From: Tricharina praecox
Taxonomy: Eukaryota
DNA: 64,000 nt
Direction of reading: 5' to 3'
Assembly (NCBI RefSeq): GCF_024521635.1
Contig: NW_026250423.1
Location: 124,001 to 188,000, forward strand
The notes beneath the pieces were generated by a model, which did no database searches, had not been told where the DNA came from, and saw only the letters and a list, made by a program, of their open reading frames with translations. Below are positions 7,737-64,000 of the stretch, in pieces (position 1 is the stretch's first letter; each line of letters opens with the position of its first letter). A program made the position numbers and the translations under genes.

Positions 7737-8172
7737 TTTGACTGGTGATGCTCGGGGGTCAGTGTGGGTGGCATTAGGCGTTAGGAAATGGGATATGGCA
7801 TACAGGATTGCAATGATGTGAAGCTGCGCCAGAATAGGCGCATACTTGGATCGACGGGGTGGCTTTTATACCCCGTGCGCGTGGGAAGGGAGCTCTGCGT
7901 GATAGTTGAGTCAACCGTCACATGGAAGTTTTAGTTCCCCGTGGCGGGGATAATACAGATGTCAGGTTGGGACTAGCGTCAATGATTATTCACTCATACA
8001 TAACCCAAACTGAACCGAACGAAGACATCAAAATCAAAGAGACAACAAAAACGCCTCTATGTAACGGCTTTTCTTCCAACCCAATCTCCACCAAAGAACA
8101 ACCCCGTCCCCCCTAAATAGGGTTAACGCGATCTCAAAAAAAAAACGCCAAATCACGGTGTCCCTTGAAGTA

Positions 8173-9339
8173 CTATTCAAACCTCATTGCGACAACTTTG
8201 TCCGACACTTGTTGGGGGGTAAGAAGTCCGGCTTCAGTGATGAGCCCCTTGATGAGGTGTCTGGGAACATGGTCGACGAATTCTTGCTGATCTTGCGGTG
8301 TGGCACCCTCAACGCCTTGCGGTGGATCGAAGTCGATGATGTTTTGCTCCACGGGCATGTTGAACTGGTCCAATGGGAATATATCGACGAACTTGTGTGT
8401 CTCCGTAGCAACATATACCGGACGGTTGTAGGTCTTTGCAACGAGGGCAAGCTGGTATGATCCCAACTATTCGGCAAGTTAGTATAGGCGTACCCGCCAT
8501 CGAAGGAGGGGCGCTGCATACAATGTTGAGGACGCTGCCGTCTCCGAAAACACCCTCCGCTCCAATGATCACCATCGTCGATTTCTTGAGTGCATAACCC
8601 ATGGCATTATCGTCGACCACCGCAACAGGGATCCCTCGAGCGCGAAGCTCCTTCGCCGTCCTGAGACCGAGAAGGCTGGGCCGAGTCTCGGTGACGATAG
8701 CGTTGAATCTAATATTCTGTTCCGCCGCTTTCTGGAGCATTGCGATCACACATCGCGAGTGCCCGTGCAAGAATACCGTAATACCGTCCTTGATAGCTTT
8801 AACTCCACACTCGGCAACCTTGATTCGCGCCTCCCTTGCGCGCTGCGCAAACAGATGTCCATTCGCCTGAAGCTGCTGCTTAAACGCCTCGAAATCCTTA
8901 GGGTCATCATGAGCGTGCGCAATGATGAAGCGCTTGAACAGGTCGCAGCCAGCGGTGAGAGAGATCGCGTTTGGAATCGACTTCTTGAGCGCGTCGGCGC
9001 CGTCACCGATTGCCGACATCAACTCGTGGATGGTACCGGCTTTTGTGGCATCACAGAGCGCCGATAGTGATTCTATTGCGGCGATGGGCATAGATTTCGA
9101 CGGGTCTTGGGAGAGGAGCTTGAAATAGTGTTCTCGGATGTCAAATTCGCCTTTTGTCGAGTATACAACACCAGGCTTCGGGTGGGAGTGCGAGGATGCC
9201 GTCGACGGGGGCGAGATGTGCATTGAGGCTGTTCGGACGCATGTATGTCAGATCAACAGCCTATTCGCATCCTAGGGTTGTAGTGATGCTGGCAGCGAAT
9301 GGGTCGGGAGCGCGACTCACAGGATATTGTTTCCGACAT
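8173..9339 (-). CDS. GCN3: Translation initiation factor eIF2B subunit alpha, 3 exons
   Basis: MPIAAIESL, SLTAGCDLF, HGHSRCV, VTETRP, IGAEGV, GSYQLALVAK..PVYVATETHKF; first exon 9339-9321, intron 9320-9229, second intron about 8520-8468. Confidence 0.93.
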
Positions 9340-10351
9340 AATGGCGTTTTGTACGTTGTTGTCCGCGGTAGCGTCGGTCGGATATGAGGGAGTGAATGGA
9401 CGTATCAAGCGGTGTCTGGAGGTGGGTCGCGGCCTGAGCGGTCGTGGGGCAAGTTGAGTTGAGGTGTCGTTGAATGGCTGATGGTGATGGTGACTGGATG
9501 CTTTGTTTCACAAGGCATGATCGTACCCCACCAAAGCACGCTAGCTATTTTACGCTGTTAGTGCGGGGTTAAAGTAAGGTAAGGGTCAGGCACCGGTCTC
9601 ATCTCCAAGACTCCAACTCGTCTGCACGCTTGAGATAGCCGCATCCACCTTCAATTGAAGCCTCAAGATGACCACACCATTTGTGTTGGGTCTCCGTACA
9701 AGTATAAAACGAATGCTATTGGGTCGCGATTCGCCAATCGCGGGAGGACAAGACACTCTTGGCCCGTGGGAACCGAGTGGGTAGGAGGTACATTGGCTGA
9801 GTACTGGCCATGGCGTTGACCCATTGTATGAATACTTCTTACTTGCCTGGTGTTTTCCTCTTTCAACGACCCGTGTTCCGTATGTCGCCGGTTTCCCGCC
9901 GATTATATACAGTCGCTAAAGACATTTGATCTTCCGATAGCACAACTTGAACTGTCATCCCTACCTTCAGCATCACCATAATCCTCACCATCACCCTTCA
10001 GCTTCCAAAGTTCCCACCCACCCTACCCTTTACCGATGTATGTGTATTTGGTAGGTCCTCATTGGGGTCTCCTCCGATTCACCGCCTTTTCATCCATTGG
10101 TCGAGGCCGTTAAATTGCAGTGCAAGCAAGTCTGTGCGTTCACAGTCACTCGGCCAGTTAATCTGCGGTCCCAAAATTTCCAAAAACACAGTCATTTGCC
10201 TCCGTGAGTTCTACTTGTATCGCTAGGATAGGTCAGGTAGAGGGCGGAGGGCAGAGAAAGCCACATCGGGCCGCTCGATGAAAGCCAGGTTTGGCAGCGG
10301 CACGGAACTGGGTGTGTGTACAGTATACAGTAATCAAGAAAAAAAACATAA

Positions 10352-10663
10352 TCATTTGTTCCAGATCCTCTTGAACTCCATCATAATTTGATCCGGATCC
10401 ATAATGATATTCTTTGTCTGTTCAAACGCAGTTATCTGTTGTGCAAGAGCCGGCTCGCAATAAGATAGGATGTTCAGCCGGGCCTGCACAGCGCGGACCG
10501 ACTTAGGCAAATACAGTTTTATGGAACCAGGTACCGTTTCGTCAAAGTCGTGGCTGAAATGTTCCACCATCTTTATGAGGAAGGGCTCCCATGCATCGTA
10601 GTTGAGGGCATCGCGACGAAGGAGCTCGGAGGGGAGGGGGACGGGGACTTCGAGGATTGGCAT
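10352..10663 (-). CDS. Hypothetical 103-aa protein
   Basis: ATG-initiated ORF with globular-like composition and CAA-rich leader in an otherwise empty interval; no family recognised. Confidence 0.45.
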   Translation of the reverse strand: MPILEVPVPLPSELLRRDALNYDAWEPFLIKMVEHFSHDFDETVPGSIKLYLPKSVRAVQARLNILSYCEPALAQQITAFEQTKNIIMDPDQIMMEFKRIWNK

Positions 10664-11391
10664 GCTTGCAATTGTTGGTCGGTTAATTTGGTCGAGCTGT
10701 TTGGTTGAGTTGTTTTGACGGTCGAGTATAATCCGCTAAGACTGGCGACGGGTGTGGTGTATTTTCATCTGCTTTTGTTCATTAAGACGAATACTCATTC
10801 CCGTTTGTCGATCTCAACTTGAAGCTTGCCGTTTCATGTAAACATGAGCAGTTCAAGGCAAATACGTCCAGATGAGCTGTAAGGAGAAACGTTTCAGCTG
10901 CAGCCAAGCTTAAAGGGCGAAATAATGCAGTCTTCGTAGAGGAAAGGAACCGAGTGATGAGCTAGGTTTGACGTGTTTCTTACGGTACCTAGGTCAGGTG
11001 GCTGTGGAGTGTTAGGATTATGCGTTCTACAATATGATGTAGATGATAAAGCTTGAGTTCCTAGACTTTATACATTATGTGCTTTGCTACTCTGGATAGC
11101 AATAGCTTGCTCAAGGTACTCCAATCCGATGTTTACATAGGATAACTGTGAAGACGAGGACTAGTTCCGTTACGTAAAACACGTTCGGAAAGAAGGCTAC
11201 CCCAATCTGTTCAAATGTGGCGCAGGTCGACTATTTAGTGTCAGCCCGCTAGCACGAGCCACTCTTTCACCTTTACGCCACACCCACGTCATCGTCTCCT
11301 CACAACCTTCGCACCCGTTCACCCCCCAGCACACAAGATCACACGAACCCCGACTCGGAAAGCTCAATCTACTTTCACGCGGGCGCGAGAG

Positions 11392-14300
11392 ATGTCCTAC
11401 CTAGCATCTATACACCCAGCCTCAGCTGTCAGGCACGCGATCAAGGCGAACTTTCTTGCTCCGGATGAGTCGTCTCTGCTGGTTGCGTACGATAGACACC
11501 TGCCTGCTTGAAACCGCATGAGCTTTACGTTTGCTCGGCCAGCTAATACTCATATGATGGCCTAGTAAATCAAATCGAGTTGAAGTGTACGCGTTCGCCA
11601 TTGACGGGCTGTCACTACGAACCACATTCACAGTCTACGGTGTCGTCGTTGCGCTCCTCAAGTTGCGCCCCGAAACCAGTCCCACAGACCACATCTTCAT
11701 CTTGACGGACCGCCATGACTACTTCGTAATCTCGTGGGAACCCGAAAAAAAGACTATTCGCAACGAGAAATATGCCGAGGATGTTGCGGACCGCTTTTTA
11801 CGAGACTCCCCCGCGGGGATCAAGTACATTGCCGACCCGGCGGGCCGTATGCTGGGGATACACTCGTATGAAGGGACGTTCCTCGCATTGCCGTTGATAC
11901 AGCCTATTACCGACAAGAGGAAACGGAGAAAGACGGGGGCAGTGTGTGTCGCAGGAGAGCTCGAGGGCCACTATCCCATCAAGATGCAAGACCTGATGGT
12001 CATCGATATCGTCTTCCTCCACAGCACTGACCACCCGGCATTGGCGGTTCTCCACCAGGGCAATGGACCGGACTCTGCTATACTGTCGACATATAAAGTC
12101 GTCTTCGGAGGAGGGACTTGGGAACTTCAACCATGGGAGACTAGCGCTCCCCCTCTTGAGCAAGAGGGGAGGATGTTGATCCCCGTACCCGAGCCGCTGG
12201 GTGGAGTGATGGTAATAGGCGATAGTAAGATATCGTATTTCCCGGCACAGGAGGAAGGTCTCGGGGTCTTTCATCGGGTCGCCGAGCCAACCCGATTTGT
12301 GGCCTGGGGGAAGATCGACGCACAACGTTTCTTACTGAGTGACAACACCGGAAAGCTCCAGCTGTTATTCCTGGATGTGGATGCAAACGAGAAAGTTCTC
12401 GAGATCAAAATTGAGACGATTGGACAGGTAGGTTCAAGCACAACTGCATTATCCGGGCTACTTGACTGACCGAAATAGGCGTCGATAGCAAGCCAGTTGA
12501 TTTACCTGGATAACGGCCATGTGTTTATCGGATCGTCTAAAGGCGACTCACAGCTGATAAAACTGTCTGCAAAGGATCCGAGATGCGAGATCATCCAGAT
12601 CTCCCCCAGTCTCGCTCCGATCCTGGATTTCCAGGTGATCAGCACCGGCCATTCCAGTGGTGACGAGCAACAGAATCTTTATAGCTCTGGCCAAACTAGT
12701 ATCGTGACAGGCTGTGGAGGGTTTCATGCCGGGGGATTACGATCTGTGAAGAGTGGCGTGGGTCTGAAGGATCTAGCTATCTTGGGCGATATGATGGGCG
12801 TCAAGAAACTGATACCACTGGGGGTCACTCTCCAGAACCCGTATGTGACCTTTCTTGGGGCATTTCCGAGCAAGCTAACTTAGTCCCATAGGTTTCACGA
12901 CACTCTGCTGGTGTCATTTATTGACGAAACGAGGGCCTTCAGGTTTGATGACGAGGGTGAGGTGGAAGAGCTCGACAGTTTTAATGGATTCGCCATGGAG
13001 GAAGAGACCTTGGCCGCATGCCTTCTATCGGACGAGCGGTTACTCCAAGTCACGCCTTCCCGGATCAGAATTGTGGATGCAACAGGCGGAATGGTGCACT
13101 CGGAATACGTGTCTGACTCCAAGATTGTCGCAGCCGATGTCAATTGCGACCTCCTTGTTTGCAATTTCGGAAACACGACGCTCGCAGTATTTAATCTGGG
13201 TGGGAACGCGGATGAGATCGTGGAAGTCGGCCGTCGCACCTTTGAGAACGAGATTTCCTGCCTTTTCGCTCTCTCGAACTATCCGCTTGTCTGCGCTGTT
13301 GGCTTTTGGACATCGTCCGCGGTTGCATTGCTATCGCTCCCCGGTCTGAAGACGCTCGCCGAAGAGTCATTGGGTGGTGATGTCACGGTTCCACGCTCCA
13401 TAGCGATAGCCACCATCGTTGAAGGACAGTCCCCGACCTTGCTGGTTGCCATGGGAGATGGAACACTTGTTACTTTCTCAACCAACGACAATTGGACGCT
13501 GTCGCAAAAGAAGTCGATTTCCTTGAGCACTCAAGCCTTCTCCTTCCAGCTTATCCAGCGGGACGAGGGTCTCAGTGTGTTTGCCTCTTCTGCGAACCCC
13601 AGCCTGATCTATAGCGACGGGGGCCACATCATGTACTCGGCAGTCACGGCTGAGAATGTTTCGTATCTGGCGCCGTTCAACGCTCAAGGATTCCCCAACT
13701 CGGTGGTGCTCGTGGCGAATGGCGAGGTGAAGATTTCGACCATCGAGACGACGCGAAACAGCCACTACAAGACGCTGCGCATGGGCGATGTGGTTCGTAG
13801 GGTTGCCTACTCCAAGGAACGGCAACTGTACGGCATCGTTACGATTGCTGCCTGGCAGACCTTTCCGACTGTCAACGAGAGACATACCTGCTTTGTGAGG
13901 ATTGTCGACGACTACGAGTTTAGTGTGGTGAACTCGTACGAGCTGGAGCCAAACGAACTGGTTGAATCTATAATATGTGTTCAGCTTGGCGACTGGGATG
14001 GCAAGAAGACTGACAAGTTCTTGGTGGGCACCGGAAAGATTCCAGATTATGCGGATATGGAGGACGGAAACTCAGAGTGCAAGGAGGGGAGACTACTGAT
14101 TTTCGAGATCTCGGAAGCCCGCAAGCTGCTGCTCCTCGCCGAACTGAAGCTGAAGGGCGGTGTCAAGTGCATAGACATGGTGGGCGAGGACATCGTGATT
14201 GCCTTGAACAAGACTGTGCGAGATCCTCCACAGGCCGATCAACCATCATACCTCCTAGCTAACGGCTCCCAGATCGAAGTGTACTCCTACCAGTTTGCCA

Positions 14301-42182: not shown

Positions 42183-43965
42183 ATGCTCGCTCGTTCTCTT
42201 ACACGGTCCGCTATTGCTCGCAGCGTCGTCGTCCCTCGTGCCAGCCCCGCTCCTGCATTGCTCCGGATAGCTACCGGTGCTCGGCAACCTGCTTCCACCA
42301 GCACTTCCACTCCGCTCGCAAAACTCGCGCCTGCCTTCAGCAGTGTACGCAGCTTCTCGTCGACAATGAGTGCCCACGCCATCCCCGCTCCCACCGCGGA
42401 CAACACTAGGCCTGCCGTCGACAAGGTCGTGCAGGACATCGCCGACTATGTTCACGACTACGAGATCAAGTCCGATTTGGCTGTAAGATGCTCAATCCTT
42501 TGTGGGGATGCGCAGGAGGATCGCAATTGACATGTCTACTGTGATAGTGGGAGACCGCCCGTCTGTGTTTGATCGATACCCTTGGGTGCGGACTGGAGGC
42601 ATTGAACTTTGAGCAGTGCACCAAGCTTTTAGGCCCGGTTGTTGAGGGTACGCTGTCTTGTCTCCAAGTTTTGGTGGATGGCAGAATACTCACAGCGACA
42701 CAGGAACCGTCGTCCCCAACGGCACCAAAGTCCCCGGCACCCCCTACCAGCTAGACCCGATCCGAGGCGCCTTCAACATCGGCACGGCTATCCGCTGGCT
42801 AGACTACAACGACTGCTGGCTGGCGGCCGAGTGGGGCCACCCCAGCGACAACCTTGGCGGCATCCTCGCAGTCGCGGACTGGCTTGCCCGCACCAACAAG
42901 GCCAACGGCGGGCCGGTCCCGACCATCAAGGACGTTCTCGAGGCGATGATCAAGGCGCACGAGATCCAGGGCGGCCTCGCGCTTGAGAACTCGTTCAACC
43001 GCGTCGGCCTCGACCACGTCGTCCTCGTCAAGGTCGCTACCACCGCCGTGGTGTCCAAGCTCCTCGGCCTGACCAAGGAGCAGACGATTGATGCCGTGTC
43101 CCAGGCGTGGGTCGACGGCCAGTCCTTGCGGACCTACCGTCACGCACCCAACACCATGTCCCGCAAGTCGTGGGCGGCCGGCGATGCCTGCTCCCGTGCG
43201 GTCAACCTGGCACTCATGGTCAAGAACGGCGGTGTGCAGGGGATCCCGTCGGTGCTCACCGCCAAGATCTGGGGCTTCTACGACGTACTTTTCAACGGCA
43301 ACGAGTTCAAGTTCCAGCGGCCATACGGCAGCTACGTGATGGAGAACGTTCTGTTCAAGATCTCGTTCCCGGCCGAGTTCCACAGCCAGACGGCGTGCGA
43401 AGCCGCCATGACGCTGCACGGCCAGCTCAAGAAGCTTGGCAAGTCCTCAGACGACATCGCATCGATCCGCATCCGCACGCAGGAGGCCGCCGTCCGCATC
43501 ATCGACAAGAAGGGCCCGCTCAACAACTACGCCGACCGCGACCACTGCATCCAGTACATGGTCGCCGTCCCGCTGATTTACGGCCGCCTCACCGCCACCG
43601 ACTACAACGACGACATCGCGGCGGACCCGCGCATCGACGAGCTCCGCGCAAAGATGGAGTGCGTCGAGGATAAGACTTACTCCCTCGAGTACCACAACCC
43701 CGATAAGCGCTCCATCGGAAACGCCCTCCTTGTCACCCTTAAGGACGGCACCGAGCTGCCAGAGGTCGCCGTCGAGTACCCCGTCGGCCACAAGTTCCGC
43801 CGCGCGGAGGGAATCCCCCTGCTCGTGGAGAAGTTCAAGCGTCACGTCGCTGGAAGACTCGGGCAGCAGCAGACGGATAGAATTTACGCCGCCAGCGAGA
43901 ACCTGGAGGCGCTGCAGAAGATGAGTGTCGATGAGTACGTCGACATGTACGTTACCAAGGCGTAG
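42183..43965 (+). CDS. PDH1: Mitochondrial 2-methylcitrate dehydratase (PrpD/MmgE family), 3 exons
   Basis: Presequence; [66 protein letters not shown]. Confidence 0.97.
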
Positions 43966-44230: not shown

Positions 44231-45334
44231 CTACGGGCCGTGGGGGTTCTGAATCAATGCATTGTTCTTCGGTGCAGCAGTTGGCGGGCCTTCGGGGGTG
44301 ACATATGCCTATAGTACCGAGTACCAACCATGATTAGCCACTGCCTACCCACACATCTCCATCCCCATTTCCTTTTCGGGGGGGAGGGGGGGGGGGAACC
44401 AACCTTGCTCATCCCACCATCCACGACTAATTCCTGTCCAGTAACAAAGCTCGCATCATCACTCGCCAAGAAGACGACCATATGCGCCTGCTCAATGGCC
44501 TCACCAAACCTTCCCGTGGGGAAATGGACCTCGCGGCGCTGCCTCTTCGCGGCATCGTCACCGAGCCAGTCCTGAAGCAGCGGCGTGTTCAGCGGCGCCG
44601 GACACAGGTTGTTGAATCGGAACCCCTCGCGCGCGTGCACGATCGCCAGCTCCCGCGTCAGTGCTAGGACTGCGCCTTTCGACGCGGTGTACGCCAGCTG
44701 CGGGGTTGCGGACCCGACGAGTGCGACGACGGAGGCCGTGTTGATCACTGATGCTTTACGCTTGCTGTGCCGTCGGAAGGACAAAACCGCGTGCTTGCAC
44801 CCGAACCACACCCCCTTCACGTTGATGTTGTGCGTGAGATCCCAGATCGCCTCGGGCGTGTTGATGGCGTCGTCGTCCTACGTACCTATGTATCAGCGAG
44901 TGCAGCGAGCGAGCGAGCGGAACGGAGGGGGAGGGAAGAGACCTGTGCGTGCATAATCCCGGCATTGTTGAAGATGACGTCCAGACCGCCCCACTCGTCG
45001 ACAGACTCGACCATGGCCTTGACCTGGTCCTCTTTGGAAACATCGCAGACCTGCACTCCCACACTGCCATCAACCCCACCCTCCATTATCCCACCCCACC
45101 CCCTCACCCCTTCCCCCATCATCCACCCCTCGAGGGAGTACTTACGTAACCCACGACCTTCGCCCCAGCGGTGTTAAACTTCCCCACCGTGGCGACGGCC
45201 TTGTCAAGCTGCTCCTTGTTCACGTCGGCCATGACAATGTTCGCGCCGTTCTGTACGAACAGGATCGATGTCTCCAGGCCGATTCCGCCTGCCGCGCCCG
45301 TGATGATGCAGTTTTTGGATTGGAGGCGGGTCAT
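44231..45334 (-). CDS. Short-chain dehydrogenase/reductase resembling those in actinobacterial glnA4 operons, 4 exons
   Basis: TGAAGGIG, NNAG, NTAS..GSATPQLAYTASKG (YxxxK), LCPAPLNTPLLQ, RR.VH.P.GRF; last exon AYVTPEGPP..HGP*. Confidence 0.92.
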
Positions 45335-46551
45335 TGCTGCTTGCGATGAGGATGGGGGGGGTGGGGATGGCGGGGGATGAGGGGGATGGGGAGGATGGTG
45401 GTGATGGGGGACACGGTGATGGTGAGGTGGGGTATGGGAGTAGGTGCAGTGAGAGACAGGTCGGCGAGGTGAGCTCCGGCGAGGACATTAACTACTGTAG
45501 GGTGCTGCAGAGTACGGTAAGGTGGGGTTAAGAGCGGCGAGAGCTGTTGATAGGCTAGTATAGGTAGTACTCTACAGTACATATGGCTGGTGTCCGTAGA
45601 GGTATGTACCACTGGGAACAGTGATAAGAGCTCTATCGTCCTCAGCTGTGCATTTCTTTGCGAAACCTGTATAGGTATATGGCCCCTCCATACCGGTATT
45701 CTCATCTCGACGGGTATCGCCACATAAGGAGATTAGTCCCAGCGCCCTCGACCACTTCAGCAGGCTTCGGACACTGTCGAGATTTATGCTGATGAGGACA
45801 ATTTCAGAGGCATCTTCCTTTGCCGTCAAGATGGAGACCAAATGGTAGCAGCACGTTTACTTGATTCGTACTGAGACACGACGTTGGGGGCGGATGACGA
45901 GGAGGAGGTGGCCAGCTCGCTGTCTGAAACGGATGACGAGAGGGATATGATATATCGATGAGTTCCTGGGCTGGTTGGAGGTGAAGCGGAGACTCCATGG
46001 CTTGCGGCCGAGTACAGGCGGATCCCATCGACTCGGTCATCTTCGTGAACTTTCCCTAGCAGACTCCACATCTTCTCGGCGGCTCGGCGGGAGCCCTCAG
46101 GAAAGGGAAACAAGGTGCTGCATCGAGCCAGCTATCTGGACTGCAGACAGGCTCGGGAAGAGAGTGTCCATCGCAGTCATCTACGGTACTCTATGATAGT
46201 AGATAAACAGAAGCGGATATCGATTCCTCATGCAGCGCCTAGATACCTCCCCCATGTCCCTGCCTTGAGCCTCACGCCGATAAGCACTAACTAGAGTAGA
46301 GCGGGGCCTGGACGAGGGGCATCCCTACGGACATGTGAGGAAGGGGAGGAACGTCATCACTCATCTGAGCAGTGTCCATCATTTCCTTGATCATACATAA
46401 CTCTACTCGAGTACTTCCCCAGTACCTACCGTAGTAACTCTACCTCCCCATAGTCCCTTTCAACAAGGACTCCTCCAGAATACCGTATCTATTACCACCG
46501 CTACCGACCCTCAACACGGAAAAACAACATAAACGAACAGAAAAAGCAACC
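45335..46551. promoter_or_regulatory. Divergent promoter between SDR and GS-like genes with multiple HGATAR sites
   Basis: TGATAG 45548, TGATAA 45622, CTATCG 45633, TGATAG 46194, AGATAA 46201, CGATAA 46278. Confidence 0.5.
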
Positions 46552-48082
46552 ATGACAGAGTATACTCTCGACACGATCACGACCGAGCTCGCAGATGACG
46601 ACAAGGTGAAGCTTGCGGGCGTAGATGCCGACGGCATCCTCCGTGGTGAGTAACCACCGCACTCCGTACACCCCACCACCCTCACATTCCCTCCAGGCAA
46701 GCTGGTCTCGAAAAAAAAGTTCCTCTCGGTAGCCTCCGCGGGCTTCGGCTTCTGCTCGGTGGTGTTCGGGTGGGACATGCACGACAAGACGTACTTCCGG
46801 GAGCTCTCGGTATCGAACGCGGCGAACGGGTACCGCGACATACTAGCGAAGGTGGATCTCACCTCGTTCCGGCGGATCCCCTGGGAGACCGACGTCGGCA
46901 CCGGCCGCGGCATCCCGTTCTTCCTCGTGTCGTTCCACGATCCCGAGACCGAGGAGCCGATCGCGCCCTGCCCCCGTGGCCTGCTGGCACAGGTCGTTGC
47001 GAAGATGCAGCCGAGGCTGTGGAAGGCGATGGCGGGAACTGAGTATGAGTTCTATAACTTTAAGGCGACCCCGAAGAGTCTCAGCGAGAATATGGGACAG
47101 GCCTTGGAACACATCACGCCCGGCATGTTTGGGTACTCGGTCACCAGGCCGGTGCAGAACCGGGAGTTCTACTACGGGGTGTTTGACGCATGTGGGGGCC
47201 TCTCTCTCTTCCGGGGCGCACCCTTCCGGCCGCTGACGCACTCCTCCCGCAGGCAAGAAATTCGACGTCCCGATCGAAGGCTGGCACACCGAGTCCGGAC
47301 CGGGGGTGTACGAAGCGGCGCTCGAATTCGGCGAGATCAGCGGAATGGCGGACCGGGCCTCGCTGTTCAAGTACGCCGTGAAAGCGCTGGGCGCCATGCA
47401 CGGGATCACGCCGTGCTTCATGGCGAAGCCGATCGAGGGGCTTCCGGGCAACAGCGGGCACGTGCACGTGTCGCTCGCCTCCGCCACCACGGGCGAGAAC
47501 CTTTTCGCCCGCGCGGAAAAGAACCCGAGCCCAACCTTCCCAGACCTCGCGTACGTCTCCGACATCGGCGAGTACTTCCTGGCGGGAGTGCTCGACGCCC
47601 TGCCCGCTATCATGCCCATCCTCGCACCAACTATCAACTCGTACAAGCGCCTCGTCGAGAACTTTTGGGCGCCCGTGACGGTCAGCTGGGGGCTCGAGCA
47701 CCGCTCGGCGAGTATACGGCTCATCTCGCCGCCGACTGCATCGCCGAAGGCGACTAGGTTCGAGATCCGCACGTGCGGTGCCGATACAAATCCGCATTAC
47801 GTCCTTGCGGCCATCTTGGCGAGCGGCCTGCGCGGCGTCGAGAAGAAGATGAAGCTTACCATCCCCCCGCTGGGAAAGGGCGAGGAAACGGGCGGTGGTG
47901 AACGCTTGGCTAAGACGCTGGGCGAGGCGGTGCAGAAGATGGTGCAGAAGGATAGTGTGGCTAGGGAACTGTTTGGCGACGTCTTCGTCGATCATTTTGC
48001 GGGCACTAGGCTGCATGAGCTCCAGCTGTGGGAGCAGGCGGTTACGGATTGGGAGGTGAAGAGATATATGGAGACGGTGTAG
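46552..48082 (+). CDS. GSI-like gamma-glutamyl-amide ligase (not canonical glutamine synthetase), 3 exons
   Basis: DADGILRG-K, FGWDMHD, EYEF, WHTESGPGVYE, FMAKP, GNSGHVHVS, NSYKRLVENFWAP, HRSASIR, RFEIR; introns about 46645-46696 and 47192-47252. Confidence 0.93.
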
Positions 48083-48307
48083 ACAGAGAGATGGGGCACG
48101 GCTTTTTGTTTGCGTTTGCTGTGTCATGGCATGGCTTTGGAGTGCTGGAAGTATGGATCATGGGTGATGAATCAGGCTTTGGATTACACTGGTGGACACG
48201 ATGGAATTGATAGATTCGGACACGAGATCAACGAATGCAATGGACAGTTCAATTTTGCTCTCATTCCTTCCGCTGTGGCACGCAACTACGGTAGCTCTTC
48301 CCCCAGC

Positions 48308-48844
48308 CTAAGCAACACCCATAGCCCTCTGCCCAGTGTAAAACGCCAGCCCATAATCCGGCGTCGTAAACGTGATTGTCGCACCCTTCTCTACACAGCA
48401 CAGCGTCAGCCATCCACCCATCCATCCCCTCCTGCACCTCTACCACAGAGCAACCTGTGCACAGAGCAACATACCAAAATAGAACACATCCCCCGGCCTC
48501 GCGGTAACACTGAGCCCGGTCTCATCGGTGATCTGGTACTCGCCCTCGAGAATAATCTATCCTTTCCCATCAGCCCCCTCTCATCCCCGCAGGGCCTCCC
48601 TCCATCCCCCCATCCCCCCGGACCCCCTTCCCCCGCAGGACTATAGGTGACTAACCTTCATCTCATGATACCCATACGTATAAACCAGCTGCTCCCCCTT
48701 CTCCAGCCGGTAGAACCCGGCAGAGATCGGCTTGTCGGCGTCCAGCTTGTCGCTGCTGTAGATGTCCTGCAGGAACACGTTGTCGCCGGCCAAAAGTGCG
48801 GGCTTGAAGTGGGTCTGCGCAAGGGGGTGGTGGTGCATTGGCAT
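48308..48844 (-). CDS. EutQ-like cupin (ethanolamine utilisation protein-like); exons 48844-48656, 48556-48475, last exon ending 48308
   Basis: Spliced ISAGFYRLEKGEQLVYTYGYHEMK-IILEGEYQITDETG..ARPGDVFYF-EKGATITFTT..AFYTGQR; only the first exon appears in the ORF track. Confidence 0.88.
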
Positions 48845-50228
48845 CTTTGGTTTCTTTGGTTTCGAGGGGTGAAGGATAGGGTATGAGGGGGAGGGGGGAT
48901 GATGAAGGCGGGGATGGGTGGATGGGAGGAGACGAGAGAGGAGGAGGGGGATGGGGAGGGGGAGATGAGGGCGGGGAGGAGGGGGGGTTATATGTGATTT
49001 CTGGGAGCAGTACAGATGCACAGATTGTCCTGTTCTAGTTCTTGAGTCCTCAAGTCCTCGACTGCATCCGCATCCGAATCTGGTGAACGAGCTGCGACGC
49101 TGGCTTTCCGCTTCCTTTCCCCGCACGGTGTAGTTACACATACCAGATTAGAGCTGGTTGGAGCTGGTTGTGAGATGGTTGACTCTGGTTCCGAGGTGGT
49201 GATACGGCCACTTCTATACTGCAGTGCACTGTGGGTAAGAGCTGTACGGCAGGTTGGAGTAGTTGGAGCTGGGTGATACACGGCCACTTCTGCGGCCACT
49301 TCTGCGGCCACTTCTGCAGCGAGGCCGATGCGACGGGCACTTTCCGATGTCCGCGCTGCTATCTGATGTGCATGTCTGCTCCGCGAGAGCGACTGGCGAT
49401 AGGTGATGGCGCTGCGCGGCGGCCGTGGCACTGGCGATAAGTATAGTACTATCTATATAGTCGGTACCTACCTCATACCTCATACCTCGTACCCGTGTGC
49501 TGCGGACTGACTGCGTCATGTACTATCACTCGAGGCATATGGGAATACCTATGGGAATCCCACTTTTTTCTGGATACGGCGAAGAACTCCATGTTTCTGT
49601 TTTTCTTTCCTTCTTTTCTGTGGAAGCACTGTGTACTGTGTAAAAAACAAGAATCATGCGACCTGCGGTTGGATCATGATGATGACTGGAACATGAACTT
49701 GGAAGTGGATGAAGATGTGAGGATGTGAGGAAGTGGATGTGAGATCGCTTCAAACCCGAAAACGAGAGACATCTCGAGCAACATCAAGATTCAAGACATC
49801 AAGACATCACGACCACCACCATAATCATCGTCATCATCATCACAAATCCCATCGATCCCTCCGGAATCCCATCGATGCCATCGATGGCCAAGAATGTCTC
49901 TGATAGGGCCACAATCACGATCATATCACGATCATATCACACAGGCCTGTGGACCTGAAACACCTACATATGTAACCGATCGATCTCCACGGAACAGAGT
50001 GAGCACGAGCAAGTACTTGTGTATGTAGTAAAACAGTAATTGAATTGCGCCACGCGAGCAACTGCCAAGTAGTAGGTATCCCAAGTATCCAAACCAAAGT
50101 ACATGTCCGCGCGAGAAACGGTAAACCACAACGCCAGAATCCACAGAAAAGCAAAGGAAAGAAATAGCCAATAAGTAAAACACCAGTGACCAACCCCCTG
50201 AAACAAGACAAGACCCACAACAGCCAAC

Positions 50229-52887
50229 TTACCCCAACAGAACTGTCGATCTGTACGTTAGTTGTTGTTGCTCGAGATTCATGAGGAGGAGGAGGAGGAG
50301 GAAAGTACGCACCCTCCCAGCCCCAGTGTTTCATCACTCCGAGCCAGTGGAGACTCCCTCTGATCGACACCTCGTAATCCCACTCGCCCTTCCGATGCTC
50401 GCGTAGTATATCGTCAGTACTGCACCTCTTCGCCCGCTGGGGCTCCGGGCGTCGGTTGTCCGGCTCGAACGCCGCGTCCCACGCAACCATAGCATCTGTC
50501 ATCGGCGTCGTCGTCGGAGATGCATACTTTGAGCGCGGTGATGAAGAGGGCGACAGCGTAGGCGACGGGGTTATGGCGGCATGGCGTGCCTGGAACGCAT
50601 CGCGGCGATACCACACCTCCTTGACGACCTGCCAGGCCTTGTCGATGTTCCCGATCCACATGCGATTCATCATGCCCTCCCATCGGTCCCTGACCCAGAT
50701 CCGCTCCTCGTCGCCGACGGCTTCGCAGCCGGCCGCGAGCAGCGGGTAGATGTGTACGATGCAGCAGCGGGAGCCCGGGGGGATGGAGGCGATCAGTCGC
50801 ATCACCTTGTCCGCGAGCTCGTGTGCATCCGGTGACGGCAGTTCCGGGACCGCCTGGTGGAGGTACAGGAGTGTTGCCCAGCGGTAGGCCTCGGCTGTGG
50901 TGATGCAATGTACCACGTCGCTAGACGGATCTTCGATCGGTTCGTAGTACTCCTGTACCTGCCACGATTCGAGTAGAAGCTTGAGATCCATGGCGGCAGC
51001 GATGATCCCCACCGAGTTCTTTTCGAGTTTTCGTACGCGCTGGACGAGACGGGCGGCTTGGCCGATCAGCGGGAAGAGGGTAGCCGCGCAACCGAGCAGT
51101 GGATCGATCGAGAAGGAGGAGATCAGGGGGGCGTAGGACATCTTTGGGTTCATGTTGTTGCTGTCTTCCTCGGCGTCGGATGTGAGCCCGGCGAGGACGT
51201 CCAGATACACCCACACGTTGTACAGGAACTGCAGCCGCTGGAATCCCTCGGAATTGACGCTCAGCGGAGAGATCCTGGCCAGGGCCTGATTGATCAAAAC
51301 CCTTGCACCGCGTAGGTGCTCGATTCCCGTCGAGATGTGAGTATCGAATGCCTCCGAGAAGGCCAGAACCAACGTAGTCCCCAATGCGGCATCTTCCCGG
51401 ATGTTTCCGTGGGAGAGACCCTGTGCCAGGAAGCGGATCGATCGGCGCATGTGTTCCATTCCTTCCACCCGCAGCTGTGGTCGCTGCCTCGACATATGGA
51501 ACGCGGTCATCGATGATATGGCGTGGTATAGGGCCTGCGAGTCGCGAGCCAGTGGCCAGATGAGGGTTCTCCATGGATTCTCCGTTGGACCGTCTTTGAT
51601 AGACATGATGCCGCATGTGTTTTTGTCGAAATAAGAGAGCAGCAGTTCGGGTGACTCCACCATCACTGCTGGCCGTCTGAAGACGTCCTGGAGGTGGACG
51701 AAATTCTCCCCCAGCGACGAGCGGGAGTCGGAGGAACACGACGACGCCATGGAAGGGGTCGGCGACGAAACCAATCGAGTCTGACTCGCGCCGCCTCGTA
51801 TCATCTCTTCGATTGCGTCGCCATCGACCTCGTTGACGCTTCCTCCTACCGAATATCGAGTCCCCGGAAGGTACAGTTCCGTCTCGTTCCCCACAAAGTC
51901 CAGCAACTCCTCGATGTGACCGACGGGTGATCTGCTCGCGATTTCCATCCCCATTTGATGGACATCAGCCTCCAGCGGTGCCCCAGGGGCGCCGATGCAC
52001 GTATCGCCGTAGAGCTCTTCTAGAAGGTCAACGTTAGTCGGCAGAGCCGTAGTTGGGGGCGGAGTCGGTAATCGATCCAGAGCGGTATCGGGGGTGATGT
52101 AAATCCGATCAACGTGGAAAACATCGTCCGTTGCGGTACTCGGACACTGCATTGGCCGCACTTGAGCGAACGGATTCTGTGACAGATCCAACTGCCCACC
52201 TCCACCCATTCGCACTGTTGCTGCTGCCGAGGACTTCTTGGACCTTTGAATCCCTCCTACACCGTCGTTTCAGCCAACTTTCGGAACAAACGATCCACAC
52301 GGAGGAGACACGAGGCCGGTACCTTTTCGTATGGTCTTGAGACTTTTCCCGGCTATTGCCGATTCCTCAAAGGGCCTCCATTTGAAATCCTTCTTGTAGC
52401 CTCCACAAGGCACGCTTCTCTTGTGACCTGACGACAACAATGAGCAAGACCGAATCTTGGATTCACGTATGTACTTGAGTGAGAAGTATGTACCGCTACT
52501 TACATTGGAGACATGTTGGTTTCGTTTCATCGCATTTTAACCGTTTAGCCTTGCATGTGACACATCCTACCAGTCATCGTCAGCGAGGAGCTGGAGGAAA
52601 AATCATCGTGACCATTGAGACTGGAATCGGAGCTGGAGGGCATCTTTTTCTTTTTTCTTCTATATTTTTTTCTTTTTTATGTGTATATGCACGATAAGAT
52701 CCGCAGTCAACATACCATTCCTACTCTTTGACTGCTTCGGTTTGGTGGCAGGACTGTCGGTGCCATCAATGGCGGATCTACCATTCTTCGATGGTATGTC
52801 GGAGACGATGCTGCTGCCAACGAGTGCATAAGAAGTGTTTGAGCTGGGAGGAGGAGGAGATTGTGACATGGTTTCCATTGACTGCAT
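50229..52887 (-). CDS. Zn(II)2Cys6 transcription factor with Fungal_trans_2-type domain, multi-exon
   Basis: Spliced KSRNG-CVTCKAKRLKCDETKPTCLQC-..RSVPCGGY; ENPWRTLIWPLA, YLDVLAGLT, IDPLLGC, YPLLAAGCE; final exon VLLG*. Confidence 0.92.
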
Positions 52888-61903: not shown

Positions 61904-64000
61904 TCAATCGATAACGACATGCGCGAACCCCTTCCTCATGACTGCAGTGTCCTCCTCACTATCGGTGATATGATCATCGACCGTGACAACAACCTTCGCC
62001 CTCTTCCTCTGCCGCGCCGGCTCACGACTGTCCGGCTGGAATCCGGACGGAAACGCCGAGGAGGAGGGCGTGTCGCCTGCAAACTGTAGCTCTCTGGCGT
62101 CGAGCGAGGTCAGTACGCGGCGCTTTCTGCATGGGGGGTCCGGTTGCAGCGGAAGCGATGCGGACCGGTCACCGATACTGGTAGCACCAATATCACCCGT
62201 TGCGGAACGCGAGTTCGGCTGAGACGACGGAAGGCGTGTGCGGAAGCCAGACGGTGAAGATGGAGGCGGCGGCTCCGAGTGTGGATTGTGGCGTTGTGGG
62301 GACGATTGCTGCGATGGTCGGGGTGATGTAGGGGCCGGCGAGCTCCCCGGGGTGTCTAAGTCCACCACATTTCGCAAGTGTCCTGGTGACGGCGATGAAG
62401 ATGAGGTGCATGAATACGGGGTCCGGAAAGAGCGCGAAGACTGTTGTAGCGGCTTCTCGGCGGGTCGCTCGCCCGTAACCTCAACATCCGAATCAACCCA
62501 TTCGTCTATGTCGATAAACTGCGGTGGCGGTGGTACACTTTCGCGTGAAGGGGTTTTAGCAGGCGTTCTACCGGTAATCGGAAGCTCCGAGTCTGAAGAA
62601 TCCCATTCGTCTATATCAATGAATTGGGGCGCTGCCGTCTCAAATAGAGGGTTTTCAGTACCCCACATATCCATAAAAGAATCCGTATCCGAGTCATCCA
62701 GTTCGTCGATATCGATAAACTGAGACAGTGGAGGGGTTTCACTGCTCTCCTCGGCATCCTTCCTATCCGATTCCTCCAGTACCCTCAAAACCTCACGCAT
62801 CAGGATCTTCCCCATGCGCGGTGGCACAGCATTCCCAATCTGTCGCTTCACGTTGGTCGTCCCGCCAACGAAATCGTAATTCTCCGGGAAAGTCTGGATG
62901 CATGCAATCTCGCGCAACGTAAATCGGCGGAGACCAGAGGGGTGGACTCCATTGTGGTTCCCGCCAGCCATGATCGTGCGCATGAATGGTAGATTCATTA
63001 CATTCTTGGTGTCTAGTCGCATGTTGTCGGGAAACCGCAAGGCCGGGTCGTTTGGGTTGTGAGCACTGATGCCAGGTTGAAGATTGCCTATGGCATCCCC
63101 AAGTGTGCGAGCGGGCTTCAGTCGGGTAGGCTCTGGTGGCGGCTTTGGGTACCAATGTGTCGGTTCGGGAAATTTGGGCGGTTGTTCCCCTGGACTGCGA
63201 GTTTGTTAGAATTGTAACAGCAGAAATCGAATACAAAAACTTACCAAGAAGCCATGATAATCAGCCGCTGCCTGGTCTGGGGGACGCCATATTTTACACA
63301 TGGCAAAATACTCCACCGGACGGAATATCCTGCCGACGTGAACTGATTGATTACAGCCCTGAACCACACCGGCCTGTGTGTCAATCCGAAGGTCTGCTCC
63401 AGTGTTGCAAACCGAGGCTTGACCTTCTTCAAGCAGTCACAGATGCAGAGCGAAGATGCTTCATTATCTTCATCGAACTGTCCAGGTGTCGTGTGGGCTG
63501 GTGAATGTGGCTGGCAAGGAGGGGACAGGTGCATGACATCCACATGGTAGTCCCCGGGTAGAGCGATGAACTGATCCGCCGAGAGATGGAATGCCTGAGC
63601 TTCGGGATATCGCTTTCTAAATGTCGCGATTGCATCCGTATCATGGTCGAACCCCCACGAATTGATGAATTTCGCCTGACTGGCGCCGCAAGACATGCCA
63701 CCGGCTCCGCAAAAGGCGTCCCCGAATGTGTACTTGTAATCCTTTTGTTGCTCTTCGGAATCGTTCGACGAACACTCCCTGGTAGTAACGTAAGGTTTCT
63801 TCAAGATACGTTCCCGAACCCGGAACATGGCGTCCGCCTCATCTTCCCTCAGCCGGCGGATTAGGCCAGTACCCCCGGGTTTCCGATTCTCGGGGCGTAC
63901 GTGGAGCGAGGTCGTGCCGTTAGTTTCCATATACCATCTGCAAACCAATCTACCAAGCTGCTCGGTCAAGCGGTCGCTACCCACGCGAAGTCTGTGGTTC
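61904..64000 (-). CDS. rid: RID/Masc1-family C5 cytosine methyltransferase (5' end outside the window); intron 63195-63244
   Basis: Motif I DAFCGAGG, IV SPPCQ, VI EQT (RID/Masc1-type instead of ENV), VIII QTRQR, IX RRFTLRE..QTFP, X IGNAVPP; splice gives ASCPGEQPPKFPEPTH. Confidence 0.93.

Follow-up and report, generated by a model that had tools for sequence, protein, structure and literature searches.

In a stretch of 64,000 nucleotides from the fungus Tricharina praecox (contig NW_026250423.1 of assembly GCF_024521635.1, positions 124,001 to 188,000; hereafter the window), a gene for a short-chain dehydrogenase/reductase (SDR) stands head to head with a gene for a protein resembling glutamine synthetase (GS), which we call the GS-like ligase. 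The reading that we favor, with modest confidence, is that the two form a gamma-glutamylation module under a shared divergent promoter, predicted to act on a small amino alcohol, with ethanolamine as the first candidate. The ligase is predicted to be an ATP-dependent gamma-glutamyl-amine ligase, and the SDR is, judged by its family, of the kind that accompanies GS-like ligases in Actinomycetota. Next to the pair lie a small cupin gene and a gene for a Zn2Cys6 transcription factor, and the original prediction, made from the letters of the window, had joined all four in a cluster for the catabolism of ethanolamine or other amines. Its gamma-glutamylation reading has stood as far as the kind of SDR, the lost ammonia site of the ligase and the synteny of the pair are concerned. 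It has not stood as regards orthology to the actinomycete ligase GlnA4, the four genes as a unit, or the argument from the cupin's likeness to EutQ.

Ethanolamine is released in quantity from phospholipids, and its breakdown is well described in bacteria, by the vitamin B12-dependent eut route and by gamma-glutamylation in actinomycetes. The module would belong to a known kind, the bacterial gamma-glutamylation pathways Puu and GlnA4, as a eukaryotic variant whose ligase is of another lineage. The glnA4 cluster of Streptomyces coelicolor comprises an SDR (SCO1611), an aldehyde dehydrogenase (SCO1612), GlnA4 itself (SCO1613) and a hydrolase (SCO1615). Within SCO1611-SCO1615, gamma-glutamylethanolamide synthetase activity has been demonstrated for GlnA4, and the steps after it are predicted (PMC6529630, PMC9397018).

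It is the bacterial company of the SDR that makes ethanolamine the best candidate for the substrate. Exon 3 of the SDR, which is 79-93% identical among fungal orthologues, finds its best NCBIfam match in NF004713 (PRK06057), with 185 bits where the next family has 136. Two full-length fungal orthologues, P0271 and P0366, score 269.1 and 272.9 bits on the same family, with the next family at 212, some 57-61 bits behind. At E <= 1e-55 the fungal SDR matches 79 of the 301 sampled genomes of Actinomycetota, with 43-53% identity, compared with 1 of 401 from Pseudomonadota, and the curated cut-off of NF004713 is passed in 46 of the 301. If three genomes flagged as unpublished (G092, G124, G178) are left out, these counts become 76 and 46 of 298. 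A GS-like gene lies within 8 kb of the bacterial SDR in 37 of 39 loci (20/20 and 16/18 in two sets, plus 1/1 from Pseudomonadota), and in both misses of the 16/18 set the sequence ends within about 2 kb of the SDR. One of these loci, L125, runs SDR, aldehyde dehydrogenase, GS-like gene and divergent Peptidase_C26 gene, the same layout as the published SCO1611-1615.

The subfamily motifs that the original prediction had named for the SDR proved to be real. In an alignment, INTAS..A..G.AT.Q..YTASKG.V.A..REL, LCP.P.NTPLLQ and RR.VH.P.GRF are shared by the window SDR and the PRK06057-cluster members L121, L125 and L138; L153 shows small substitutions, NTPLLQ is degenerate in L143 and L142, and RR.VH is altered in L142. 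An SDR from outside the family, L090, keeps the INTAS and LCP-like stretches and lacks RR.VH.P.GRF, NTPLLQ and the G.AT.Q part; exon 3 is 36% identical to it, compared with 46-61% to the GS-linked bacterial SDRs. In a tree, a branch with a support of 89 (SH-like approximate likelihood ratio test, SH-aLRT) separated the fungal and GS-linked bacterial SDRs from the 25 other SDRs sampled, which make up a small outgroup. The tree also drew the fungal SDR inside the actinobacterial ones, as sister to L143 and L144 (SH-aLRT 98). A tree constrained to a simple sister relation scored slightly better and was retained by the approximately unbiased (AU) test (p 0.575), so a transfer of the SDR from Actinomycetota to fungi is not supported. 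A scan of contigs with a fungus-specific SDR alignment returned only eight distant SDRs, at 27-39% identity.

In fungi, adjacency is kept between the SDR and the ligase. Metagenome contigs were scanned with an alignment of fungal ligase orthologues, and the 80 loci obtained were divided by identity and intron structure into 48 fungal and 32 bacterial ones. Where a fungal locus has 2 kb or more of sequence upstream of the ligase, the SDR adjoins the latter in 24 of 30 cases, 23 divergent and 1 tandem, and four more loci with shorter flanks carry it as well. This makes 28 pairs, 27 of them divergent and 1 in tandem, with 360-1743 bp between the SDR and ligase matches. In the tandem exception, L012 (5790-8657), both genes are on one strand, with the SDR upstream. 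By best named match, the pair loci resemble Pezizomycetes, Dothideomycetes, Lecanoromycetes, Eurotiomycetes and Sordariomycetes. Some of the fungal loci are near-duplicates (L009/L011, L051/L052, L035/L036), and the independent lineages are therefore fewer than the locus counts. When all open frames of the loci and the window were clustered, as an internal control, no other gene family proved common to more than 8-10 of the 30.

The cupin and the transcription factor, by comparison, keep their adjacent position only in the three loci most closely related to the window (L009, L010, L011), out of 33 fungal loci that extend 1.5 kb or more downstream. The factor is 60-74% identical in these three; L010 begins inside the ligase, so that any SDR of its own would lie outside the contig. 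As adjacency of SDR and ligase is widespread and that of cupin and factor is confined to close relatives, the conserved unit is the pair and not the four genes. The proposed synteny thus held for the pair, and failed for the cupin, the factor and the four-gene cluster as a whole. Cupin and factor are lineage-specific neighbors in Pyronemataceae-like genomes, and could have joined the module or be bystanders.

Four fungal loci (L021, L026, L027, L037) have an aldehyde dehydrogenase gene directly after the ligase and convergent with it, and in Dothideomycetes-like contigs SDR, ligase and aldehyde dehydrogenase form a three-gene set. The aldehyde dehydrogenases of fungal L026 and bacterial L125 have different best NCBIfam families and so are not evidently orthologous. 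A gene of the dienelactone hydrolase family lies downstream near the ligase in eight loci (L008, L021, L023, L025, L032, L036, L038, L040), which could be a candidate hydrolase or plain lineage synteny.

Among 18 orthologues from the breadth of Pezizomycotina, all of which fit its gene model, the ligase shows 64-84% identity. Among representatives of clusters at 50% identity, its kin occur in Glomeromycota, Kickxellomycotina, chytrids, budding yeasts and Basidiobolus, which makes this an old fungal lineage. Its best relatives in the PDB are 11zs and 5dm3, the latter presumably from Chromohalobacter salexigens, at about 1e-41 compared with about 1e-33 for true GS. Both structures are members of the GlnA4 clade, and their matches to the ligase of L125 are at 1e-120 and 1e-117. 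In what we take to be the numbering of E. coli GS, all 11 of the residues checked for metal, ATP and glutamate are kept (E129, E131, E212, E220, H269, H271, R321, R339, R344, E357, R359) in five of five Pezizomycotina orthologues, the window ligase being represented by its 84%-identical orthologue P0002. The ammonia site, on the other hand, is replaced: E327 has become W, Y179 has become F, and D50 is not kept in an N-terminal alignment that is uncertain around this position. Retention of the catalytic residues together with loss of the ammonia site is the pattern described for gamma-glutamyl ligases that do not make glutamine (PMC6478659).

Several results weigh against an ethanolamine module of this kind. 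In our trees (148 rows with FastTree, 51 rows in an IQ-TREE quick tree), SDR linkage and the PDB entries 11zs and 5dm3 served to delimit the GlnA4 clade, with the named SCO1613, Rv2860c and FluG outside the trees. The fungal ligases form a clade of their own, separate from the GlnA4 clade (SH-aLRT 96), and this pan-fungal clade sits with bacterial GS-like proteins in a group of 27 rows (support 99); E. coli PuuA and GlnA branch further out. Joining the fungal ligases and the GlnA4-like rows in one group was rejected, at 298 log-likelihood units worse and p-AU 1e-4, for a group named after the tree had been seen. The window ligase is thus not an orthologue of GlnA4, contrary to what the original prediction had led us to look for. 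Its nearest bacterial relatives, at 42-50% identity, keep company in the scanned loci mostly with GSII-like, gamma-glutamyl cyclotransferase-like (GGACT) and HAD hydrolase genes, and have no SDR nearby. The fungal SDR, for its part, stays under the curated cut-off of NF004713, with 269-273 of the 404 bits required, where the bacterial member in L125 reaches 510. Adjacency has its exceptions too, since in 6 of the 30 fungal loci (L007, L017, L034, L035, L036, L038) the SDR is not beside the ligase. In the 64-kb window we found no gene for an aldehyde dehydrogenase, amidohydrolase, amidase or permease; that the first of these is missing agrees with the original prediction. Lastly, the SDR reaction is only predicted even in Streptomyces (PMC9397018).

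The context of those bacterial relatives deserves a description of its own. A set of genes recurs in L049, L050, L054, L059, L068, L076 and L063, at about position 8000-13500 of each, in the order 336-amino-acid GSII-like protein, GGACT on the opposite strand, 452-amino-acid GS-like protein, a gene of about 345 amino acids that lacks a Pfam match, and 289-amino-acid HAD hydrolase. The families were confirmed with Pfam in L049, L050, L054 and L068, and assigned in the others by size and order of open reading frames. By its make-up, the set looks like an undescribed gamma-glutamyl-amine system.

We propose a model in which the GS-like enzyme would use ATP to join the gamma-carboxyl of glutamate to an organic amine in place of ammonia, as its residues suggest. 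The SDR, going by its family and linkage, would then oxidize a hydroxyl on the gamma-glutamylated amine; in the case of ethanolamine it would convert gamma-glutamyl-ethanolamide to gamma-glutamyl-aminoacetaldehyde. An aldehyde dehydrogenase would act next, followed by release of glutamate or 5-oxoproline, and in this fungus these later steps would be encoded elsewhere. Such a module would allow amino alcohols to be used or detoxified independently of B12.

This model resembles the glnA4 clusters in that a GS-like ligase lacking the ammonia site is paired with an SDR of the same family, and in that an aldehyde dehydrogenase is adjacent in the four fungal loci mentioned above. It differs in that the fungal ligase comes from another GS-like clade, the SDR lies under the NCBIfam cut-off, and neither a Peptidase_C26 hydrolase nor a permease is adjacent; the fungal genes are also divergent and intron-bearing, unlike an operon. 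The E. coli Puu pathway offers a second likeness, as there too an amine is gamma-glutamylated, then oxidized, and glutamate is released. However, PuuA branches far from the fungal clade, and the Puu oxidase is PuuB, which uses flavin adenine dinucleotide, and not an SDR.

The cupin was the other pillar of the ethanolamine argument in the original prediction, and it bears little weight. The window protein is identical, letter for letter, to P0396 of Tricharina praecox, which passes the Pfam thresholds for Cupin_3 (37.1 bits, cut-off 23.5) and for EutQ, PF06249 (33.3 bits, cut-off 21). The EutQ match takes in positions 71-143 of the 152 in the profile, which is the cupin core alone, and several clusters of like cupins of 115-130 amino acids occur across Ascomycota and bacteria in a protein atlas. 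The EutQ name therefore says little of its own about ethanolamine, and the claim that it points there independently is weak. EutQ is an acetate kinase. Like the EutQ proteins of Salmonella and Clostridioides (2pyt, E 6.9e-6; 4axo, E 7.8e-5), the window cupin has the cupin core, but its best solved relative is 3lwc, an uncharacterized protein of 119 amino acids (E 7.6e-8), and it has no eut operon or microcompartment around it. The full-length EutQ architecture is not present in the cupin, and the 64-kb window contains no eut genes. The cupin gene is likewise found in none of the 39 SDR-linked bacterial loci nor in the other bacterial loci examined. As for the transcription factor, it matches Fungal_trans_2 of Pfam (E 4.9e-60), and a Cys6 motif, C-X2-C-X6-C-X6-C-X2-C-X6-C, can be read across its exons 2 and 3. 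Its tie to the SDR-ligase pair is position alone, as had been stated from the start, and nothing further connects them.

What, then, would the pair do if not break down ethanolamine? The same two genes may act on another amine, such as 1-amino-2-propanol, a hydroxylated polyamine or an aromatic amine, or may make a gamma-glutamyl compound and not degrade one, a role that could resemble the signaling proposed for FluG. We consider this unlikely, yet serious enough to weigh with care. The position of the ligase outside the GlnA4 clade speaks for it, as do the different context of the closest bacterial relatives, which includes a gamma-glutamyl cyclotransferase-like gene, and the want of catabolic partner genes beside the pair in the window. 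A fungal precedent exists in FluG of Aspergillus nidulans, a GS-like ligase that has no GS activity, acts on an unknown amine and serves an unidentified gamma-glutamylated metabolite (PMC6478659). FluG is, however, fused to an amidohydrolase and related to SCO6962 and PA5508, as the same paper states, whereas the window ligase stands alone with 472 amino acids and matches PA5508 (4hpp) at E 8.8e-21, far more weakly than 11zs and 5dm3. Against another substrate or a biosynthetic role stands the SDR, which is the specific kind found in GlnA4 clusters of the ethanolamine type, and so do the four fungal loci in which an aldehyde dehydrogenase comes after the ligase, as it does in catabolic clusters of bacteria.

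A full ethanolamine cluster of four genes, in which the cupin would be an enzyme of the pathway and the Zn2Cys6 factor would regulate it, seems to us improbable. The genes are indeed neighbors, both in the window and in the loci L009, L010 and L011, all four are seen in spliced contigs, and the cupin is over the EutQ threshold. Ligase, SDR and cupin of Sphaerosporella (P0003, P0273, P0397) moreover share one listed longest-contig value, 134810, as do the SDR and cupin of Tricharina (696801) and the ligase and cupin of Wilcoxina and of Geopyxis. Yet all three cupin-bearing loci among the 33 are from close relatives, the 39 SDR-linked bacterial loci do without the cupin, the EutQ match is to a generic cupin core, and the factor is linked by position only. 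Least probable, and very doubtful in our view, is that the GS-like protein is a glutamine synthetase isoenzyme of the ordinary sort, with the SDR for an old neighbor and no pathway common to the two. Database names do call the ligase 'glutamine synthetase', and MoGLN1-3 of Magnaporthe are treated as glutamine synthetases in PMC8229676; MoGln3 (MGG_02538) is a putative orthologue of the window ligase. In that same paper, however, glutamine shortage appears only in the MoGLN2 mutant. Deletion of MoGLN3 brings no defect in growth or virulence there. The ammonia-site residues are replaced, GS-like genes accompany the same kind of SDR in 37 of 39 bacterial loci, and adjacency is kept across five fungal classes in which other neighbors are not, all of which argues against an isoenzyme.

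The gene models bear out the four adjacent genes of the original prediction, in the order and orientation that it gave: SDR (-), GS-like ligase (+), cupin (-) and Zn2Cys6 factor (-), all at 44231..52887 (Table 1). Both ends of this interval are exact, as 44231 is the end of the SDR stop codon (44233-44231) and 52887 is the ATG of the factor. The divergent start codons of SDR and ligase are separated by the roughly 1.2 kb that had been noted, and the ligase and the EutQ-like cupin are convergent, as described, with 225 bp between their stop codons. All ten predicted introns, with GT..AG ends, are spliced out in contigs from two public runs of two studies, including three of the SDR, two of the ligase and three on the 5' side of the factor. 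The runs are presumed to be RNA, their kind being a guess, and the assembled contigs show splicing and cannot rank expression. The contigs break at a CCT repeat (50275-50309), which encodes a proline run near the end of the factor gene, and for this reason the final intron and the stop of that gene are placed only as a range. Domain matches in Pfam are adh_short_C2 for SDR exon 3 (E 3.9e-35) and Gln-synt_C for ligase exon 3 (E 8.3e-70). The closest named proteins are from Wilcoxina mikolae for the ligase (84%) and Tricharina praecox for the SDR (96%).

Table 1. Genes and intergenic region at 44231..52887 of the window.
Feature	Coordinates	Strand	Details
SDR gene	44231..45334	-	283 amino acids; 4 exons: 45334-45146, 45050-44943, 44877-44404, 44308-44231
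Shared SDR/ligase intergenic region	45335..46551		1217 bp between divergent start codons
GS-like ligase gene	46552..48082	+	472 amino acids; 3 exons: 46552-46645, 46697-47191, 47253-48082
EutQ/Cupin_3-type small cupin gene	48308..48844	-	117 amino acids; 3 exons: 48844-48656, 48556-48475, 48390-48308
Zn2Cys6 transcription factor gene	49921..52887	-	exons 52887-52716, 52566-52504, 52427-52323, 52256 to ~50313; 3' end within 49921-50313

The 1217-bp region at 45335-46551 is presumably a bidirectional promoter. A block of 15 nucleotides at 46168-46182, identical at 14 of 15 positions, is shared with the Wilcoxina-like loci L009 and L011, and the rest of the region aligns poorly; the stretches of these two loci in the alignment also took in ligase exon 1. 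On its other side the SDR adjoins a gene of the MmgE/PrpD family (2-methylcitrate dehydratase type) at 42646-43965 (+), with more exon sequence upstream. A member of this family adjoins the SDR in L009 and L011 as well, and in L025 and L037 one is found between a few and about 8 kb away from the pair. Ancient synteny, or a weak connection with propionate metabolism, may lie behind this. Two frames for C-5 cytosine DNA methylase at 61907-63999 (-), at the end of the window, are probably one gene that runs off it. The remaining genes of the window are of housekeeping type.

We found no published fungal study of this ligase or SDR, and the literature that we found on glutamylethanolamide concerns actinomycetes only. 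As the SDR is of the same kind as in the bacterial clusters for ethanolamine breakdown, fungi may use a similar route for amino alcohols. We go further only tentatively, in suggesting that Pezizomycotina may possess a dedicated, B12-independent route of the ethanolamine type, encoded by a bidirectional pair kept in at least five classes. This would be a hybrid, with a pan-fungal ligase from outside the GlnA4 clade and a dehydrogenase of the kind found in actinobacterial clusters, the latter of which may have been acquired from bacteria. The same dehydrogenase family beside different GS-like lineages would amount to a swapping of partners. Fungal stand-alone GS-like proteins show high conservation, and databases give them no more than generic names. 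A pair kept across ascomycete classes, and tied through its SDR to the GlnA4 clusters of bacteria, turns them into the subject of a concrete, testable hypothesis. If it is true, the eukaryotic orphans called 'type-1 glutamine synthetase-like' would receive their first function.

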